From assembly GCA_017445085.1 (NCBI GenBank), contig JAFSUT010000032.1:1-43135 (forward strand): DNA of 43,135 nucleotides, written 5' to 3'. Position numbers and translations under genes: made by a program. Origin of the DNA: Clostridia bacterium. GTDB lineage: Bacteria; Bacillota; Clostridia; Oscillospirales; CAG-272. The notes below the pieces were generated by a model. The model was not told the DNA's origin. It saw only the letters and a list, made by a program, of their open reading frames with translations, and ran no database searches. Below are positions 21,085 through 42,491 of this stretch, piece after piece (the first letter of the stretch is position 1; each line of letters opens with the position of its first letter).

Positions 21085-23244
21085 TTACTTTCTGCCAAAA
21101 AGCGATTTGAAGAAATTTCCGATCGCATCCAAAATATTGAAAAACCAGTTGGATTTTTGTTCGGTCTTCGGCGCCGACTTTGCATCGGCGGCGCCGCTCT
21201 GTGACGGATTCGTCTTTTCTTCGGTCTTTTGGGATGTTTTTGCGTCTTTGGCGCTTTCCCCGCCGACATGATTGCTTTCGGAAGAAGGTTGCTGTGCGGC
21301 AGTTTCACCGCCTGCCGCGGGCGTTTTTTCGCTCTCCCGCGACTGTGCCGACGCCTCTGTCTTGCCGCCGTTTTGCTTGCCGCCGACCGTGCCGTCAGAA
21401 GTCTTCGGGGCGTTGGCGCCGGGGGCTGTGGGCTGTGCCGACGGTGTGGGAATCTGTATGTCGGTAGACGGCGCCGACGGTGCGGTTGCCGCAGGCGCCG
21501 ACGGCGTTACTTCCACGTCCGACGTCAGCCCGCCGCTCTGCATCTGTCCGTCCGCAGGGCGCGGGAACTGTCCCTGTTCGCCGCCCGGGAACTGTCCGTC
21601 TATGGGCGCCTGTCCCTGTTCGCCGCCCGGGAACTGTCCGTCTATGGGCGCCTGTCTCTGTTCGCCGCCCGGGAACTGTCCCTCTGTGGGGCGCTGTCCC
21701 TGTCTGCCGCCGGGCATCCGTCCCTGATTTGCGCCGGGGAATTGTCCCTCTGCGGGCATCTGTCCTTGTGTGCCGCCGGGGAATTGTCCCTGTCTGCCGC
21801 CCATATTGCCCATACCCATGCCGCCGACCGAAGTCGTGCCGGCGGTGGCGGTGGCTGCCGTTTCGCTGCCGACCTTGAGCGTATACGACGCGCCCGAGGT
21901 CAAGGCGGGGCTTGCAAAGAGGATATAACTTGCGTTTCTGACCGCTTTTGCCTCATACAGCACCGTCCCTTTCTCGTCGGTGATTTGGAAGCTGCCGCCC
22001 GCGCTGACCAGTGCGGTCTGCGCACCGCCAAAGCCGCCCATTCTGCCGCCCATCATGCCGGTCGTACTGTCAAACGTCAGGTAAGGCGTATCGGCGGTGT
22101 ATCCCTGCATCATACCGAGGTGACCGACCGCAAGGACGGTCGCACCCTTAAAGTTTGTGCCGGTTTCGGCGTCGAGCGGATCGCCGTCCCCCTGCGATGG
22201 CGCATAAACTTCCAGCGTGCCGCCGCAGAGATTGATGGCGCCGTTGGAATCCACGCCGTCCCCCGCGGTGACGTTGATGTAAACGCTTCCGCCGTACTGA
22301 TTGTAAGCAAAACTATAATTCGTCAGGTCGGAATTTGCCGCATTGACGCCGTCGTCGGTGGCGTTGACCGTGATGTTGCCCGAATAGATATTGAGCGTTG
22401 CCGCCTCTATCCCCTCTTTCGACTTTACAACGTTTACGGTGGGTCCCGCCGTGCCGTCTGCGCCGATATTCATCACGTAGTCGCATTTGACGCCGTCGTC
22501 CGCCGCGGATACCGTGACGTTGCCGGAAAGGATGTTGAGTTCTTTATCGGCTTTGAGCCCATCGCCGACGGTTGCGGTGATGTTCAGCGTCAGATCACGG
22601 ATCGTCAGCGACGCCGTGGAGAGGAGCGTATCGGTGGCGTTGCCGTCGGCATCTTCTTCGTAGAGATCAGCGCCGCCTTTGACGCCGTTTTTGCCGTTTG
22701 CCGTGACACTCAAAGTACCGCTGCCGCAAAGGGTGACGTTTGCGCCGTCCTTGCACTTGATGACCGCGTTTTCAATGTCCGGATACAGCGCCGCATCGGT
22801 ATAAATATCGTCGTTGTTGTACTTGTCGTCGGCGAGGTGATTGACCGTGCCCGCCGCCGCGACGATCTTGACCTCGCTGCCCTTGTTGCAGGTCAGGGGC
22901 GCGGTCGCAGACGCCGTGAGTGTGAGCCCGTTCAGCACCAGGGTGACGCCGGTGACGTTTTTCTTTATGACGATACTGCCGTCCTCACAGGCGCCGGAGA
23001 GGATATACGTGCCGGCCTCTTTGATGGTCAGCGACGTGCCGTCGATCTTGTAGCCGCTGTACGTCCCCTCGTTTACCGTGATCCCCGCGGCGGTGAAAAC
23101 AAAACTCGTTGCCCCCGCGGCGGTATATTCACTCTGTGTGGCAGTTTGCCCCGCGGCAAACACCGCCGTGGAAAACAAGAGGAGCGCCGCAAGCAAAAGC
23201 GCGCCGAGGCGAAGGTGTTTCATCGTTGATTTTTGGATTTTCAT
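21085..23244 (-). CDS. Cthe_2159-family (DUF4353) carbohydrate-binding beta-helix protein with Gln/Gly/Pro-rich linker
   Basis: Signal peptide; TLTIKEAGTYILSG, LVLNGLTL, DGLKA, DDGVKC, EGIEA, DDGVNAA, GDGVDSNG repeats; low-complexity tail; amphipathic C-terminus. Confidence 0.85.
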   Translation of the reverse strand: MKIQKSTMKHLRLGALLLAALLLFSTAVFAAGQTATQSEYTAAGATSFVFTAAGITVNEGTYSGYKIDGTSLTIKEAGTYILSGACEDGSIVIKKNVTGVTLVLNGLTLTASATAPLTCNKGSEVKIVAAAGTVNHLADDKYNNDDIYTDAALYPDIENAVIKCKDGANVTLCGSGTLSVTANGKNGVKGGADLYEEDADGNATDTLLSTASLTIRDLTLNITATVGDGLKADKELNILSGNVTVSAADDGVKCDYVMNIGADGTAGPTVNVVKSKEGIEAATLNIYSGNITVNATDDGVNAANSDLTNYSFAYNQYGGSVYINVTAGDGVDSNGAINLCGGTLEVYAPSQGDGDPLDAETGTNFKGATVLAVGHLGMMQGYTADTPYLTFDSTTGMMGGRMGGFGGAQTALVSAGGSFQITDEKGTVLYEAKAVRNASYILFASPALTSGASYTLKVGSETAATATAGTTSVGGMGMGNMGGRQGQFPGGTQGQMPAEGQFPGANQGRMPGGRQGQRPTEGQFPGGEQRQAPIDGQFPGGEQGQAPIDGQFPGGEQGQFPRPADGQMQSGGLTSDVEVTPSAPAATAPSAPSTDIQIPTPSAQPTAPGANAPKTSDGTVGGKQNGGKTEASAQSRESEKTPAAGGETAAQQPSSESNHVGGESAKDAKTSQKTEEKTNPSQSGAADAKSAPKTEQKSNWFFNILDAIGNFFKSLFGRK
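21562..21801 (-). repeat. Intragenic 42-bp tandem repeats encoding GQFPGGxQGQ-type units
   Basis: Identical 42-bp units at 21568-21609 and 21610-21651, a third near-identical unit at 21652-21693, then degenerate copies. Confidence 0.85.
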
Positions 23245-36571: not shown

Positions 36572-37714
36572 ATGGATATGAAAAAGATCCGCACCGAGAT
36601 CGACGCGCTGGACGACGTCATCAAAGACGCGTTCCTGCGCCGGATGGAACTCTGCGCCGGTATGGCGGCATATAAAAAAGAAAACGGCCTGCCCGTCTTT
36701 TACCCCGCGCGGTAGCGCGAGATCGTTGCGCGGCTGACCAAAGAGATGCCGGCGGATATGGCAACCTATACCAAGGTGCTCTACAACACCCTGTTTGAAG
36801 TTTCCCGCGCGTATCAGACGACAAAGATCTCGGACGGCGGCAGACTGTCCGCCCGCATCAAAACGGCGATCGAAAATACGCCAAAGACCCTGCCCACGAC
36901 CTGCACGGTCGCCTGCCAGGGGACCGAGGGTGCAAACTCCCAGCGCGCCGCCGAAAAACTGTTTTCGATCCCCACCATCCTCTATATGGGCAGCTTTGAG
37001 GGCGTGTTCAACGCGGTGGCGAGCGGCTTTTGCCGCTACGGCATCCTGCCGATCGGCAACAATCTGCACGGCTCGGTCACCGAGGTCTACGACCTGATGA
37101 AAAAACACAAATTTTATATCGTCAAGAGCATCAAACTGCGCATTGACCACACGCTCGTCGCAAAGCCGGGCGTTCCCCTCTCGGACATCAAGGAGATCTT
37201 TTCGCATCCGCAAGCCATCGGTCAATGCCAAAAGTTCTTGTCCTCGCTTGCAGGGGACGTCAAGGTCACCGAGTGCGCCAACACCGCCCTTGCCGCCAAA
37301 ATGGTGGCACAGAGCGACAGGAGCGACGTCGCCGCGATCTGTGACGCCGGGTGCGCCGAACTTTACGGGCTTTGCGCGCTCGAAAAAAACATCGCCGACA
37401 GCGACAACAACTATACGCGCTTTATCTGCATCTCCAAAGACCTTGAGATCTACCCCGGCTCGGACAAAACCAGCATTATGTTCACCCTGCCGCATACCCC
37501 GGGCTCGCTCTTTTCGGTGATCGCAAAGTTTGCCGTCCTCGGCGTCAACTTTTCCAAAATCGAAAGCCGTCCGATCCCCGGCCGCGACTTTGAATATATG
37601 TTCTACCTCGACTTTGACGCCTCGATCTACTCCGGCGGTCTGCTCGAAGCGCTGAATTCCTTTGACGCCGAATACGAGGGCGGCAGTTTTCTCGGCTGCT
37701 ACACCGAAATCTGA
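36572..37714 (+). pseudogene. pheA: Chorismate mutase / prephenate dehydratase (P-protein) interrupted by an in-frame TAG at codon 48; PDT-ACT part intact
   Basis: MDMKKIRTEIDALD...RRM...AAYKKENGLPVFYPAR*REI (CM domain; TAG at 36713-36715) continues in frame into QGTEGANS, SHPQAIGQC, NYTRF, IESRP, FYLDF. The stop may be a sequencing error. Confidence 0.8.
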
Positions 37715-37738: not shown

Positions 37739-38995
37739 ATGCGTGAGCGCAAAAACGATTTTTATCTCATCGGCGAAAAACTCGGGCATTCGCATTCCCC
37801 CGCCATCCACGCGCTGCTCGGCAACAAAAACTACGCCCTGCGCGAAGTGCCGCGCGATGAACTTGCCGCCTTTTTTGCGGCGCGGCGCTTTTCCGGCGTC
37901 AACGTTACCATCCCGTACAAAGAGGCGGTCATGCCGCTGTGCGACGTCCTCGACGGCGCCGCCGTGGACATCGGCGCGGTCAACACCGTCGTAAATATGG
38001 ACGGCACGCTCTTCGGCTGCAATACCGACTTTGACGGATTTATCTTTATGTGTCACCTCTCGGGCATCGATTTTGCAGGCAAGAAAGTCCTGATCCTCGG
38101 CAGCGGCGGCACCTCCAAAACGGCGGCCGCCGCCGCAAAAAAAATGGGCGCCGCCGCCGTTACAAAGGTTTCGCGCAGCGGCAGCGTCAACTATGAAAAC
38201 GTCTATACCGCCGCGCACGACGCACAGATCGTGGTCAACACAACGCCGGTCGGTATGTATCCAAACGGCGACGGCTGTCCGCTGGACATCGCGCGTTTTC
38301 CGGATCTCTGCGGCGTGGTGGACGTGATCTACAATCCCCTCCGCACGCGACTCATCGCCGAGGCAGAGCGCCTGCATATCCCCGCCGCGGGCGGACTTGC
38401 GATGCTGGTGGCGCAGGCGGCGTTTGCCGACCGCTATTTCCGCGCACGGACGCACAGCGGCGAAAACATCGTCCGCATCATCGCCGCGATGCGCGCGCGG
38501 CTGACCAACATCGTGCTTGTGGGGATGCCGGGGTGCGGAAAAAGCACGATCGGCAAGATCCTCGCGGCAACGACCGGGCGCAAGCTTTTTGACATCGACC
38601 GCATCATCACCGAGCGGGCGGGGATCTCCATCCCCGAGATCTTTGAAACGCAGGGCGAGAGCGCCTTTCGCGATATGGAAACCGAAGTAACGCGCGAGGT
38701 TGCCGCAAACTGCGGCGCGATCATCGCCTGCGGCGGCGGCACCGTACTGCGTGAGGTCAACCGCGCCGCCCTGCGACAAAACGGCTGTATCTTCTACATC
38801 AAGCGCAAGACCGAAAACCTGGCGCGCGGGGGCAGACCCCTCTCCGCGGGCGACGGCGCCCTGGAAGCGCTGTATGCGCAGCGCCACACCGTCTACGAAG
38901 ATTTTGCAGACATGATCGTACCCGAAAGTCCAAGCGTCGGCGCCGCCGCCATGGCGACGCTCGAAGCCTTTCGGAGAAAGGATTTTTCAAAATGA
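37739..38995 (+). CDS. aroE: Shikimate dehydrogenase - shikimate kinase fusion (AroE-AroK)
   Basis: LGHSHSPAIH, NVTIPYK, GAVNT, NTDFDG, GSGGT, NTTPVGM, DVIYNP; then LVGMPGCGKSTIG, GESAFRDME, ACGGG, RP. Confidence 0.92.
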   Translation: MRERKNDFYLIGEKLGHSHSPAIHALLGNKNYALREVPRDELAAFFAARRFSGVNVTIPYKEAVMPLCDVLDGAAVDIGAVNTVVNMDGTLFGCNTDFDGFIFMCHLSGIDFAGKKVLILGSGGTSKTAAAAAKKMGAAAVTKVSRSGSVNYENVYTAAHDAQIVVNTTPVGMYPNGDGCPLDIARFPDLCGVVDVIYNPLRTRLIAEAERLHIPAAGGLAMLVAQAAFADRYFRARTHSGENIVRIIAAMRARLTNIVLVGMPGCGKSTIGKILAATTGRKLFDIDRIITERAGISIPEIFETQGESAFRDMETEVTREVAANCGAIIACGGGTVLREVNRAALRQNGCIFYIKRKTENLARGGRPLSAGDGALEALYAQRHTVYEDFADMIVPESPSVGAAAMATLEAFRRKDFSK

Positions 38996-39426
38996 AACTA
39001 CTCGTCATCAACGGCCCCAATCTCAATATGCTCGGTGTACGCGAACCGGAGATCTACGGCAAAAGCACCTACGCCGACCTTGTCGGGATGATCGAGGCGC
39101 ACGCGGCAGAAAAAGGCGTGGACGTGCACTGTTTTCAATCCAATCACGAGGGCGCGATCGTGGACGAGATCCAGGCGGCGCTCGGCGTATACGACGGCAT
39201 CGTCATCAATCCCGCCGCCTACACGCACACCAGCGTTGCCATCCTCGATGCCCTCAAAGCCGTCGCCATCCCGACGGTGGAAGTGCATATTTCGGACGTG
39301 AATGCGCGAGAGGAATTCCGCCGCCGTTCCTTTGTATCCGCCGTCGCGCTGAAAACCATCGCCGGTCACGGCTTTGACGGCTATATCGAGGCGATGGACC
39401 TCTTGCTCTGCCCGCTGCAAAAATAA
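38992..39426 (+). CDS. aroQ: Type II 3-dehydroquinate dehydratase
   Basis: INGPNLNMLGVREPEIYG, QSNHEG, NPAAYTHTSVAILDA, EVHISD, REEFRR. Confidence 0.96.
   Translation: MKLLVINGPNLNMLGVREPEIYGKSTYADLVGMIEAHAAEKGVDVHCFQSNHEGAIVDEIQAALGVYDGIVINPAAYTHTSVAILDALKAVAIPTVEVHISDVNAREEFRRRSFVSAVALKTIAGHGFDGYIEAMDLLLCPLQK
39316..39412 (+). repeat. 97-bp direct repeat, copy 1 (3' end of aroQ)
   Basis: Identical to 41496-41592. Confidence 0.95.
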
Positions 39427-39526
39427 GTTGTGCGGCAGTTTCGCGTGTTTCCGCGGCTTTATTCAAAGGCGGCGGTCATCAACAGGACATGCCGGCAATT
39501 TTGCTAAAACTAAGAAAAAACTCTTG

Positions 39527-39560
39527 TAAAAACACGGCTTGGAAACCGTGTTTTTATTTT
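39527..39560 (+). terminator. Terminator after the current aroQ 3' end
   Basis: TAAAAACACGG / CCGTGTTTTTA, then TTTT. Confidence 0.65.
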
Positions 39561-39566
39561 GCAGAC

Positions 39567-39595
39567 TTGAAAACAAGCGCAAATAATGCTATAAT
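39567..39595 (+). promoter_or_regulatory. sigma-A promoter of the R-M operon
   Basis: TTGAAA-N17-TATAAT with extended TG. Confidence 0.75.
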
Positions 39596-39632
39596 GTAAC
39601 AAAGTTAAGTTGATTTGTAGGAGTCGACAAAT

Positions 39633-40469
39633 ATGAATATTATCAATGCTATATACAATCTTGTAAACAGACCTGTTATTGATGTTGTATCATACTATAC
39701 CGGAAAGAACAGAGCGAACAACTCCGGTGACGCCCTTGAGGAATACATAAAAGATTTATTTGCCGGTACTTTTGATATGAATGAAACTGAAAGACTGGAA
39801 ACGCTCAACAATGTTTTTTCTTACCTGGGAAACAACAGCAATCCTCCGGATGCTATGCTGCGCGGCGGTGATGCTATCGAAACAAAGAAGATTGAAAGTA
39901 ACGGTTCTGCTCTCGCTTTGAATTCAAGTTACCCCAAACATGATTTGAAAAGCGATAGCCCTATGATTTCAAATGCTTGCCGCACTGCTGAACATTGGAT
40001 TAAAAAAGATATGATTTATGCCGTTGGAATTGTTAATAATGATAAATTAAAGCATTTGGCTATGGTGTATGGTCTTGATTATTGTGCAAGTGAGGAATGT
40101 TACAGCCGTATTAAAACCACAATCAAAAACGGTGTAGAATCAATACCGGGTGTAGAATTTGCCGAAAGCAGAGAATTAGGCCATATCAACAAAGTAGACC
40201 CCCTCGGAATAACATATATGCGCGTTCGCGGTATGTGGGGGATTGAGAACCCGTGGAAAGTGTTTGAGTACATCTATCAAAGAGATTTCACAAATTCCTT
40301 CAACTTTATGTGTATCATCAATGAAAGTAAGTGGAACTCCTTTGACAATACGGAATTGATCACCTCGCTTCATATTCATGGTTTTGACATTCGCGATGTA
40401 AGGATCAAAAATCCGGATAATCCTGCCCAGCTTGTCAATGCAAAACTAATCACTTACTTTCTGAATTGA
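39633..40469 (+). CDS. Type II restriction endonuclease, NgoPII family (predicted GGCC)
   Basis: [66 protein letters not shown], recognised from memory as NgoPII-like. Confidence 0.85.
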
Positions 40470-40479
40470 GGTGCAAGAT

Positions 40480-41469
40480 ATGAAGGTCATCAGCCTTTTT
40501 TCCGGTTGCGGCGGGTTAGACCTTGGTTTTGAACGAGCAGGATTTGATATTCCTGTTGCAAACGAGTTCGACCCTACCATTTGGGAAACATTCAAAATCA
40601 ATCATCCTGAAACAAAACTGATTGAGGGTGACATTCGTAATATTAAAGCAGATGATTTTCCGGCAGATGTTGACGGTATAATCGGCGGTCCTCCGTGCCA
40701 GTCGTGGAGCGAAGCCGGAAGTTTAAGAGGTATCAACGACGAACGAGGCAAGTTGTTTTATGACTATATACGCATATTGAGAAAAATTCAACCAAAGTTT
40801 TTTCTTGCAGAAAATGTTCCCGGTATGCTTGCCGCGCGTCATAGCGAAGCCGTAAAAAACATTATCCAAATGTTTGAGGAAAGTGGTTATACTCTTTCCG
40901 TCACAATGGTAAATGCAAAAGACTACGGGGTTGCCGAAGAAAGAAAGCGCGTTTTTTACATAGGTTTTCGTAAGGATTTGAAGAAAAGTTTTGCTTTTCC
41001 CAAAGGCAGTACCGAAGACGATCATAAAAAAATCACTCTTCGTGATGTGATCTGGGATTTGCAGGATACGGCAGTACCGGCAATCCCGCACAACCGCCAC
41101 AATCCGCAAGCCATAAACAACAACGAGTATTTCACAGGCGCTTATTCGACAATTTTTATGAGCAGAAATCGTGTTAAAAGTTGGGACGAACAAGCCTTTA
41201 CAGTTCAAGCATCGGGCAGACAGTGCCAGTTGCATCCGCAAGCGCCGAAAATGCAATTTATCGAACAAAACAAAAGACGGTTTGTTCCGGGGAAAGAGCA
41301 TTTATATCGCCGGATGACCGTTAGAGAAATCGCGAGAATACAGGGGTTTCCTGATGACTTTCACTTTATCTACGATAATGTGGATGATGCTTATAAGATG
41401 ATCGGTAATGCAGTACCTGTCAATCTTGCTTATGAAATCGCCACTGCAATTGCAAATCAACTAGAATAA
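40480..41469 (+). CDS. C5-cytosine DNA methyltransferase, M.HaeIII/M.NgoPII-like (predicted GGCC)
   Basis: FSGCGG, GGPPCQ, ENV, RKRVF, GNAV motifs; target-recognition segment [31 protein letters not shown] as in M.HaeIII; GAGGTG SD before the ATG at 40480. Confidence 0.93.
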
Positions 41470-41495
41470 GATTCAGACGCTACGCACGCGAGCCG

Positions 41496-41592
41496 TTCCG
41501 CCGCCGTTCCTTTGTATCCGCCGTCGCGCTGAAAACCATCGCCGGTCACGGCTTTGACGGCTATATCGAGGCGATGGACCTCTTGCTCTGCC
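41496..41592 (+). repeat. 97-bp direct repeat, copy 2 (orphaned aroQ 3' end, continuing ...LLCQKAKARE* to 41615)
   Basis: Identical to 39316-39412. Confidence 0.95.
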
Positions 41593-41621
41593 AAAAGGCG
41601 AAAGCGCGGGAGTGACAAACG

Positions 41622-41667
41622 TACAAAAGAGAGGAAAAGCAACTTTGTCTTTTCCTCTCTTTTTGTA
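41622..41667. terminator. Bidirectional terminator (probably the ancestral aro operon terminator, shared with araC)
   Basis: TACAAAAGAGAGGAAAAG / CTTTTCCTCTCTTTTTGTA. Confidence 0.75.
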
Positions 41668-41711
41668 TATTCGCGATGCGCCGATTTTTTGTCCGGCGTG
41701 TGCGCCGCGCC

Positions 41712-42491
41712 TTATTTGCCAAACGGTTTTTGATAGTTTTTCGGCGTCTGCCCGCACACCGATTTGAACTGGCGGATAAACTGGATATCGCTCGGATAGT
41801 TCAGCTCGTCCGCCGCCATTTTGACGGTATATCCGCCGGAGTTTAACAGATCTTTTGCATATTCGATGCGGCTGCGGATCATATCGGCGATCGGGCTGAT
41901 CCCGAACTGCAGTTTGTATAAATGCTGGAAATAGGATACGCTCATATGGAGCGTTTCGGCAAGTTTCCTTGTACTGCGCCGCACTTTCGGATTGGCGTAG
42001 ATCTCGGCGCGCAGGCGCGAAAGCTCGGCGCTGTGCGCACCGGCGGCACCGCCGGTCGCGGTGATCTCCTCGATGAGTTTGAGAAAAAGGATATGCAAAT
42101 ACAAATTACAGATCTCCCCCGCGGCGGCGCCGCCGGCATACTTTTCGTGCTGCATACGGAAAATCAGGTGCGAGAGCACGGACACGTCCTGCACAAAAAG
42201 CACCTTGTTAAAGCGCAGTCCTGCAGAGAGCAGTTCCTCACGCTCCTCTGCGGCAAGATCAAACGTCACCCAGTCGTGGAGAAAGGGCTCTCCGTCGGCG
42301 CCGAAATGCTGCGTCGCCGTTTTCTCGTAAATCATGACCGAACCGGCGGCGGCGTGTACCGTCTCCCCGTCCAGGACGAAAAAAGCGCGGCTGCGGAGGA
42401 CGAGCATCACGTATTCCACCCCGCGCGGCTTTCGTCTTAAAACAAACTGCGCGTTTGCCCCCCGATTATATCCGATACATCTGAGTTGCAT
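41712..42491 (-). CDS. AraC-family transcriptional regulator
   Basis: Cupin-like N-terminus; LAETLHMSVSYFQHLYK..FGISP...RIEYAK.LL...FIRQFKSVCGQTP. Confidence 0.9.
   Translation of the reverse strand: MQLRCIGYNRGANAQFVLRRKPRGVEYVMLVLRSRAFFVLDGETVHAAAGSVMIYEKTATQHFGADGEPFLHDWVTFDLAAEEREELLSAGLRFNKVLFVQDVSVLSHLIFRMQHEKYAGGAAAGEICNLYLHILFLKLIEEITATGGAAGAHSAELSRLRAEIYANPKVRRSTRKLAETLHMSVSYFQHLYKLQFGISPIADMIRSRIEYAKDLLNSGGYTVKMAADELNYPSDIQFIRQFKSVCGQTPKNYQKPFGK

Follow-up and report, generated by a model that had tools for sequence, protein, structure and literature searches.

A restriction-modification cassette inserted at the end of a clostridial aroQ gene with a 97-bp target duplication and likely remnants of a foreign aroQ at its junctions

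How can a pair of restriction-modification (R-M) genes that carries no recombinase settle inside the coding end of another gene and leave that gene intact? The question is raised by the 43,135-nt contig JAFSUT010000032.1 of a Clostridia bacterium (assembly GCA_017445085.1), the whole of which is called the window here, and in which a nuclease gene (R) and a methyltransferase gene (M) stand between two copies of the 3' part of aroQ, the gene for a type II dehydroquinase. That the cassette belongs to the class of R-M insertions with long target duplication, reportedly described by Nobusato et al. in 2000, is nearly certain. Beyond this class membership, the letters at its two borders make it rather probable that integration was guided by a foreign aroQ end carried along with the cassette, which has no recombinase of its own. 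Unless stated otherwise, the features described lie on the forward strand.

The duplication noticed in the initial annotation is perfect: positions 39316-39412 and 41496-41592 are identical over 97/97 bp at an offset of 2,180 bp, and the sequence occurs in only these two copies in the assembly (1.53 Mb in 127 contigs, 53% complete, which bounds all genome-wide negative results given here). Copy 1 comprises aroQ codons 109-140 plus one base and is host-lineage sequence, its best nucleotide matches being those of congeners, which led us to reject the idea that this 97-bp core was itself foreign. Between the copies lies an insert of 2,083 bp and 41% GC with two long open reading frames (ORFs), in which the GC content at third codon positions (GC3) is 0.40 as against 0.69-0.79 in four neighbouring host genes. 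The description of this insert as an AT-rich gene pair with neither integrase nor terminal inverted repeats was likewise borne out. Of 49 inverted pairs, the 25 longest include none whose arms join both ends of the insert. Neither the insert nor those flanking genes that were searched yielded a recombinase, and no resolvase matched in the assembly; its two Phage_integrase matches are located on contigs C45 and C50, not at the aroQ locus. A five-flanking-gene check for mobility genes found none inside the insert or among the upstream aroB, aroA, aroC, pheA, aroE/K and aroQ (the gap 36572-36745 was unscanned, and only two genes follow downstream before the contig ends).

Alleles of the site were read from the contigs of four runs (X1, X2, X4 and X6). 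In three of the four (X2, X4 and X6, representing three studies) the site is empty: each run yields a contig in which position 39315 is followed directly by 41496, an omission of exactly 2,180 bp; the letters shared at the joint number 97, 95 and 97, respectively, and the contigs then run on into the QKAKARE tail. An empty site of this kind in relatives is what the initial annotation had anticipated. The filled left junction is covered by a contig of X1 (39383-39827, 0 differences), a run that may be the source sample and hence not independent. The two alleles are thus real and an assembly artefact is unlikely, although the right junction was absent among the matches listed. Since excision would leave the identical sequence, an empty strain that never had the cassette looks the same as one that lost it; the direct repeats would permit such precise loss through recombination between the copies. 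No sign of cassette amplification was seen in run X1, where the depth is about 4-5.6 over the cassette versus about 3-5.2 over the flanks.

According to the main text of Furuta 2010 (PMC2853133), insertions of the class are recognised by homologues of R and M, an insert shorter than 20 kb and a direct duplication longer than 30 bp, together with an empty-site test. Here both genes are present (PF09521 and PF00145), the insert measures 2,083 bp, the duplication 97 bp, and the empty site exists; furthermore, the repeat is neither multicopy (two copies in the 53% complete assembly) nor a tRNA end, being situated inside the aroQ coding sequence. The assignment to this published class, made in the initial annotation, is thus well founded.

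The target gene (38992-39426) is the last of the aroB-aroA-aroC-pheA-aroE/K-aroQ run and encodes 144 aa, of which residues 2-138 match PF01220 (E 1.5e-58). The expressed protein of the filled allele ends in LLCPLQK*, and the orphan copy continues as LLCQKAKARE* up to a stop at 41613-41615; the duplication leaves aroQ intact, with four new residues at its end. The corresponding 90% protein cluster has four members, two of which (P0002 and P0003) end in QKAKARE and two in PLQK, the second PLQK protein (P0004) coming from a different assembly and having one substitution inside the repeat. Both endings of the proposed C-terminal swap are thus found among database proteins, and QKAKARE can be taken as the ancestral end, now orphaned at 41593-41615, given that the empty-site contigs of all three runs continue into it. 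The swap is likely neutral, as it affects residues beyond the enzyme domain, whose match ends at residue 138, and as the ends of homologues vary widely. A further protein, P0142, joins the AroQ body of a sister species (a cluster about 84% alike) to the end of this species, IEAMDLLLCQKAKARE; its switch point falls inside the segment duplicated here, and the protein, encoded on one 822-bp contig, is either a cross-species recombinant or an assembly chimera.

A feature overlooked in the initial annotation is the anatomy of the two junctions. The right junction consists of the 26 bases (41470-41495) from the methyltransferase stop to repeat copy 2. Read in the aroQ frame, it gives S-D-(one base short)-Y-A-R-E-P, the host counterpart being S-D-V-N-A-R-E-E. 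When scored by codon against a profile of 100 distinct AroQ homologue motifs, the junction was equalled by 4-10 of 100,000 random 26-mers of the genome and by none of the 4,088 26-mers of the insert. It is identical to host aroQ at 14/24 bases and to the best foreign homologue at 20/24. Its likeness to the host DNA is reached by 195 of 50,000 random 26-mers, of which about 1% also reach the codon score; three of its mismatches to the host are at synonymous third positions, and R-E-P is present in 16 of the 100 homologue motifs and in none of 15 congener loci. On the other side, the left junction (39413-39426) supplies the new aroQ end, (P)-L-Q-K-stop, which resembles natural AroQ C-termini: its score as an AroQ end was equalled at 11 of 100,000 genome positions, at 0 of 4,048 insert positions and in 11 of 10,163 cases with an early stop. 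Its register is about 3 codons out relative to the shorter congener ends. Judging from these resemblances, both junctions are likely remnants of a foreign aroQ.

Such an arrangement would be accounted for by the following course of events. In a donor species, the R-M unit would have stood behind the donor's aroQ, and a circle or fragment bearing the donor aroQ end, a terminator, a promoter, R and M would have entered this species. The aroQ-like right end may then have found its in-register partner around codon 109 of host aroQ, and the other end may have been joined around codon 140 with a slight shift of register. Copying from the host, or later conversion to its sequence, would account for the 97 bases that separate the junctions, so that of the donor aroQ there would remain 26 bases at the right and about 14 at the left; how the unit entered, what part RecA played and the conversion are likewise inferred. 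If the scraps do derive from a donor aroQ, they would provide a concrete and testable route, which predicts in-frame foreign-ortholog remnants just outside the perfect repeat in other protein-gene cases. More generally, and only tentatively, long target duplications may represent the end state of ortholog-to-ortholog transfer, in which a foreign gene end serves as a recombinase-free attachment site, the host overwrites the middle and the donor is hidden bar the junction scraps. Should this be true, the missing "release and infect" step would here have been captured in an actual case, release and re-infection being without experimental evidence in the main text of Furuta 2010 (PMC2853133).

Several points weigh against a donor aroQ. 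Both junction tests were designed after the resemblance had been noticed, the Y of the right junction is absent from the top 8 residues at its column in the 100 motifs, and slippage on host bases could equally have produced the left junction (a weak match, 98/4,000). The related R-M loci number 82, of which 81 have both genes and 73 form evaluable pairs; aroQ is beside none of the 81 in the flanking DNA available, and clear junction likeness beyond the perfect core is absent in 5 other repeat-flanked relatives (best 25/1,256). No donor came to light in the searches either. The DNA of the left spacer and junction has no above-chance match in 400 same-order genomes. A 20-base junction pattern found 2 matches in 400 same-class genomes, neither of them aroQ, with a control pattern matching at least as often, and no donor was found in viral contigs (2 loci) or plasmids (22 records, 60-80% identity). 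A search for PF09521 in the 400 same-order genomes returned 12 matches besides the source genome, whose loci were not screened for aroQ. At a likeness of only about 60% between the two aroQ genes, recombination would be expected to work poorly, and the conversion of all 97 bases to host type is a step that we again infer. The competence gene comEC has no match, which is uninformative at the completeness of this assembly. The likeness of the left spacer to the DNA behind the aroQ of sister species was considered and rejected as not significant, the best of 104 loci being non-congeners and the empty tail scoring alike.

The most serious competitor, possible though somewhat unlikely, is a de novo insertion in which break repair produced the long target duplication, no donor aroQ took part and the likeness of the junctions reflects chance or selected microhomology. 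Break repair is the standing view of the class, for which Furuta 2010 (PMC2853133) suggests, in its main text, double-strand breakage. It is in agreement with the lack of any relative beside aroQ in the 81 loci and with the nature of the related insertions. When pairs are called repeat-flanked from a direct-repeat length of 20 bp and an identity of 88% upwards, 6 of the 73 evaluable pairs qualify versus 0/17, 0/73 and 0/205 control gene pairs, a contrast that speaks for the preferred reading as well; the figure becomes 5/73 if L191, possibly a multicopy element in view of a third copy close by, is left out. Five NgoPII R-M pairs in other bacteria (L138, L148, L168, L175 and L185) have mutually unrelated flanking repeats of 21-43 bp that copy ribosome sites, terminators or intergenic DNA, with no clear remnants at their junctions. 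GGCC, the predicted recognition sequence of the cassette, is missing from the 10 bases adjoining the repeat, both at this locus and in 5 other repeat-flanked cases, and hence a cut at the cognate site does not explain the position of the insertion. Host microhomology, however, fails to predict that the right junction is closer to a foreign aroQ than to that of the host, or that it reads R-E-P, and the AroQ-like stop on the left side is not predicted either.

The possibility that other cargo occupies the aroQ 3' site, raised in the initial annotation, found no support: the 10 congener loci examined, out of 12, have neither R, M nor a duplicated aroQ end. A role of aroQ as a cargo hotspot was rejected as unsupported in the same loci, though the neighbours vary. 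In one congener (L195 of G011), a gene of 36-37% GC is situated just after aroQ; L196 (G007) does not have it in that position, and no duplication was seen to flank it.

Quite improbable in our judgement is an old and longer duplication within this lineage, in which the outer 26 bases of copy 2 decayed and the 97-bp core was kept by gene conversion or by exchange with empty alleles. It would fit the register of the 26 bases with host aroQ, broken by the loss of one base, and the chimeric P0142, which hints at between-species exchange inside the core. It would also fit the avoidance of GGCC across the genome, where the observed/expected ratio (O/E) is 0.09 overall and 0.0-0.25 on 64/64 contigs longer than 8 kb. 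However, the 10/24 differences of the right junction need great age, at odds with the GC3 of 0.40 and with strains 98-99% alike that are without the unit, and neutral decay would not favour synonymous changes or a P found only outside the genus. As to GGCC, its avoidance is patchy in the genus (O/E 0.06-0.21 in 8 of 12 congener loci and 0.4-0.9 in 4), and the NgoPII nuclease was not found in those genomes. Because it is common to congeners in which no nuclease was found, the avoidance predates the cassette and is uninformative on its age, nor does it prove that GGCC is cut or methylated in vivo. The tetranucleotide CTAG is strongly avoided as well in the whole assembly (O/E 0.05).

The insertion was called recent in the initial annotation on account of the absence of mismatches between the repeats. 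This claim is weakly supported. The unameliorated GC3 of the insert agrees with a young insertion, whereas the identity of the repeats is weakly informative. The empty-site strains differ from the window in their flanks at 32/3,274 (X2), 42/3,094 (X4) and 54/3,256 (X6) positions, that is by 1.0-1.7%, a divergence at which a stretch of 97 bases would stay free of differences in 19-38% of cases; two of these three strains are in fact identical to the window across all 97 bases, and P0004 already has one change in the repeat. The identity of the repeats therefore dates the insertion only to within the species.

It is very unlikely that an integrase worked in trans on this site, in which case the 97 bp would be its att core and the aroQ-like ends the replacement gene end of the element. 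Elements that target gene ends carry such a replacement end, and of the two tyrosine recombinase matches on other contigs one belongs to an element with a 47-bp repeat. On the other hand, neither the insert nor the tested flanking genes contain a recombinase, the 25 longest inverted pairs include no terminal inverted repeats, and the core is wholly host-type. The related cassettes, moreover, do not reuse one att core, their repeats being unrelated and of varied length and none of the 81 loci having aroQ beside it. Finally, an assembly artefact, in which the cassette was threaded between two passes of one 97-bp node, might be suspected in a genome that is 53% complete in 127 contigs and for which the filled locus is not covered from end to end by any contig of the four runs and the right junction is absent among the matches listed, but it is barely credible in view of the X1 left-junction contig with 0 differences, the cassette depth like that of the flanks, a different assembly that yields a PLQK protein with its own substitution and the nuclease on 4 contigs.

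The cassette itself consists of two genes. The first (39633-40469) encodes an intact NgoPII-family Type II restriction endonuclease of 278 aa (PF09521, RE_NgoPII, E 2.4e-109), a predicted GGCC cutter, which matches 84/84 near-invariant columns of 80 homologues, including P-D...E-x-K. The second (40480-41469) encodes a C5 cytosine methyltransferase of 329 aa (PF00145, DNA_methylase, E 5.6e-103), also of predicted GGCC specificity; it resembles M.HaeIII (PDB 1DCT) across residues 1-326 with an E value of 3.3e-135, the next family scoring 1e-36. Its start is most likely ATG 40480, as the exact protein is present in the collection and the form starting at GTG 40471 is absent. The R-then-M gene order is that of most of the 81 related loci. 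HaeIII recognises GGCC. Since an NgoPII-family nuclease is accompanied by a methyltransferase that is HaeIII-like over its whole length, GGCC is the predicted specificity of the unit, which would methylate host GGCC and cut unmethylated incoming DNA; NgoPII is grouped with HaeIII and BsuRI in one published account (PMC4081073).

No second GGCC methylase was found in the 53% complete assembly, the single match being the cassette gene, and the assembled part contains 830 GGCC sites. Killing upon loss is a known behaviour of Type II systems (PMC2993543), and in the light of these counts post-segregational killing on loss of the cassette appears plausible. The NgoPII nuclease family was detected in none of 18 same-genus genomes, which together with the low GC3 points to a foreign origin of the unit, and in 12 of 400 same-order genomes besides the source genome. 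A short contig of a same-family genome (L032, G019:C333) has an NgoPII nuclease together with a broken HaeIII-like methylase match.

The left side of the cassette carries putative expression signals. Behind the left junction follows a spacer (39427-39525; 46% GC over 39413-39526), of which there is no second copy in the assembly, and then a terminator-like hairpin that arrived with the insert (39526-39557, -14.1 kcal/mol, z -3.55); it is predicted to close the aro transcript ahead of the R-M promoter. A sigma-70-like promoter, TTGAAA-17-TATAAT with an extended -10, is located at 39567-39595 (11/12 consensus, the best of 9 sites, with 5.1 expected in shuffles), and an AGGAG ribosome site at 39619-39623. 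A second promoter-like site, TTGACA-17-AAAAAT, within the end of the R gene (40384-40412, 10/12 consensus) could drive the methyltransferase separately. On the right side, the original terminator hairpin (41621-41668) folds at -24.4/-23.0 kcal/mol on the two strands (z -8.3/-6.2) and is likely bidirectional, because it is located between aroQ and a convergent gene. This gene codes for an AraC-family regulator (41712-42491, reverse strand; PF12833, PF00165), forms the right host flank and is covered by the empty-site contigs. The initial annotation had placed terminators after both aroQ ends; a simple terminator scan listed neither hairpin, though the folding of both is much more stable than that of shuffled sequences (z -3.6 and -8.3), in accord with that placement.

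Six other long repeats of the genome were examined; they proved to be repeats between paralogs or within genes, to belong to an integrase element or to lie in the dnaA region. One of the repeats seen (G000:C45:4726-4772, copy 7,765 bp on) delimits a small integrative element, L266, with a tyrosine integrase and a Prim-Pol/D5 primase between 47-bp direct repeats. Another, L262 (G000:C38:9528-9654, copy 1,625 bp on), is a repeat of about 195 bp and 96%, between whose copies lie an HTH_3 gene and the gene of a repeat protein that looks secreted, a possible duplication or insertion. Within the window, 21568-21789 is a tandem array of 18-42 bp units with six overlapping 72-nt copies, likely a low-complexity coding repeat, and at 37739-38995 shikimate dehydrogenase and shikimate kinase domains are fused in one 418-aa ORF, as in congeners.

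Among known systems, homology-facilitated illegitimate recombination usually replaces or deletes target DNA. It shares with the present locus one junction in register with homologous sequence and another at a short out-of-register match; the target here is duplicated, and the parallel is offered as a lead only, the literature search having returned no bacterial primary paper on the process. Compared with the transposon-like R-M unit in the main text of Furuta 2010 (PMC2853133), the duplication here is as long as 97 bp and there are no terminal inverted repeats among the 25 longest of 49 pairs. Integrase islands that restore a gene 3' end, such as the R-M genes with integrase at tRNA genes mentioned there, likewise have direct repeats at the 3' end and a replacement end, but here no integrase is present in or beside the unit, the target is a protein gene and the relatives occupy unrelated targets. 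With Type IIP R-M systems of the NgoPII/HaeIII type the cassette shares the intact nuclease columns, the HaeIII-like methyltransferase and the R-then-M order, and differs in that its specificity is predicted from the genes alone and in having no controller gene.

The closest likeness is to the insertions with long target duplication of Furuta 2010 (PMC2853133): R and M only, a small insert, a unique repeat, an empty site, an intact target gene, and a duplication of 97 bp within the 25-423 bp range of its Table 3. The cases in its main text are mostly from Proteobacteria, whereas the host here is apparently a gut bacterium not yet in culture, with the closest named relatives of its AroQ labelled Clostridia. 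The repeats described there often span a start or stop site, whereas the present one is confined to the coding end and does not reach the stop codon. Descriptions of foreign-ortholog remnants at such junctions were found neither in that main text nor in the other literature covered, most subscription papers being outside its scope, and in this respect the present locus, both junctions of which resemble a foreign copy of the target gene, differs from the published cases. As the class is published and common, the locus alone would be an ordinary member of it; its value lies in the anatomy of its junctions.

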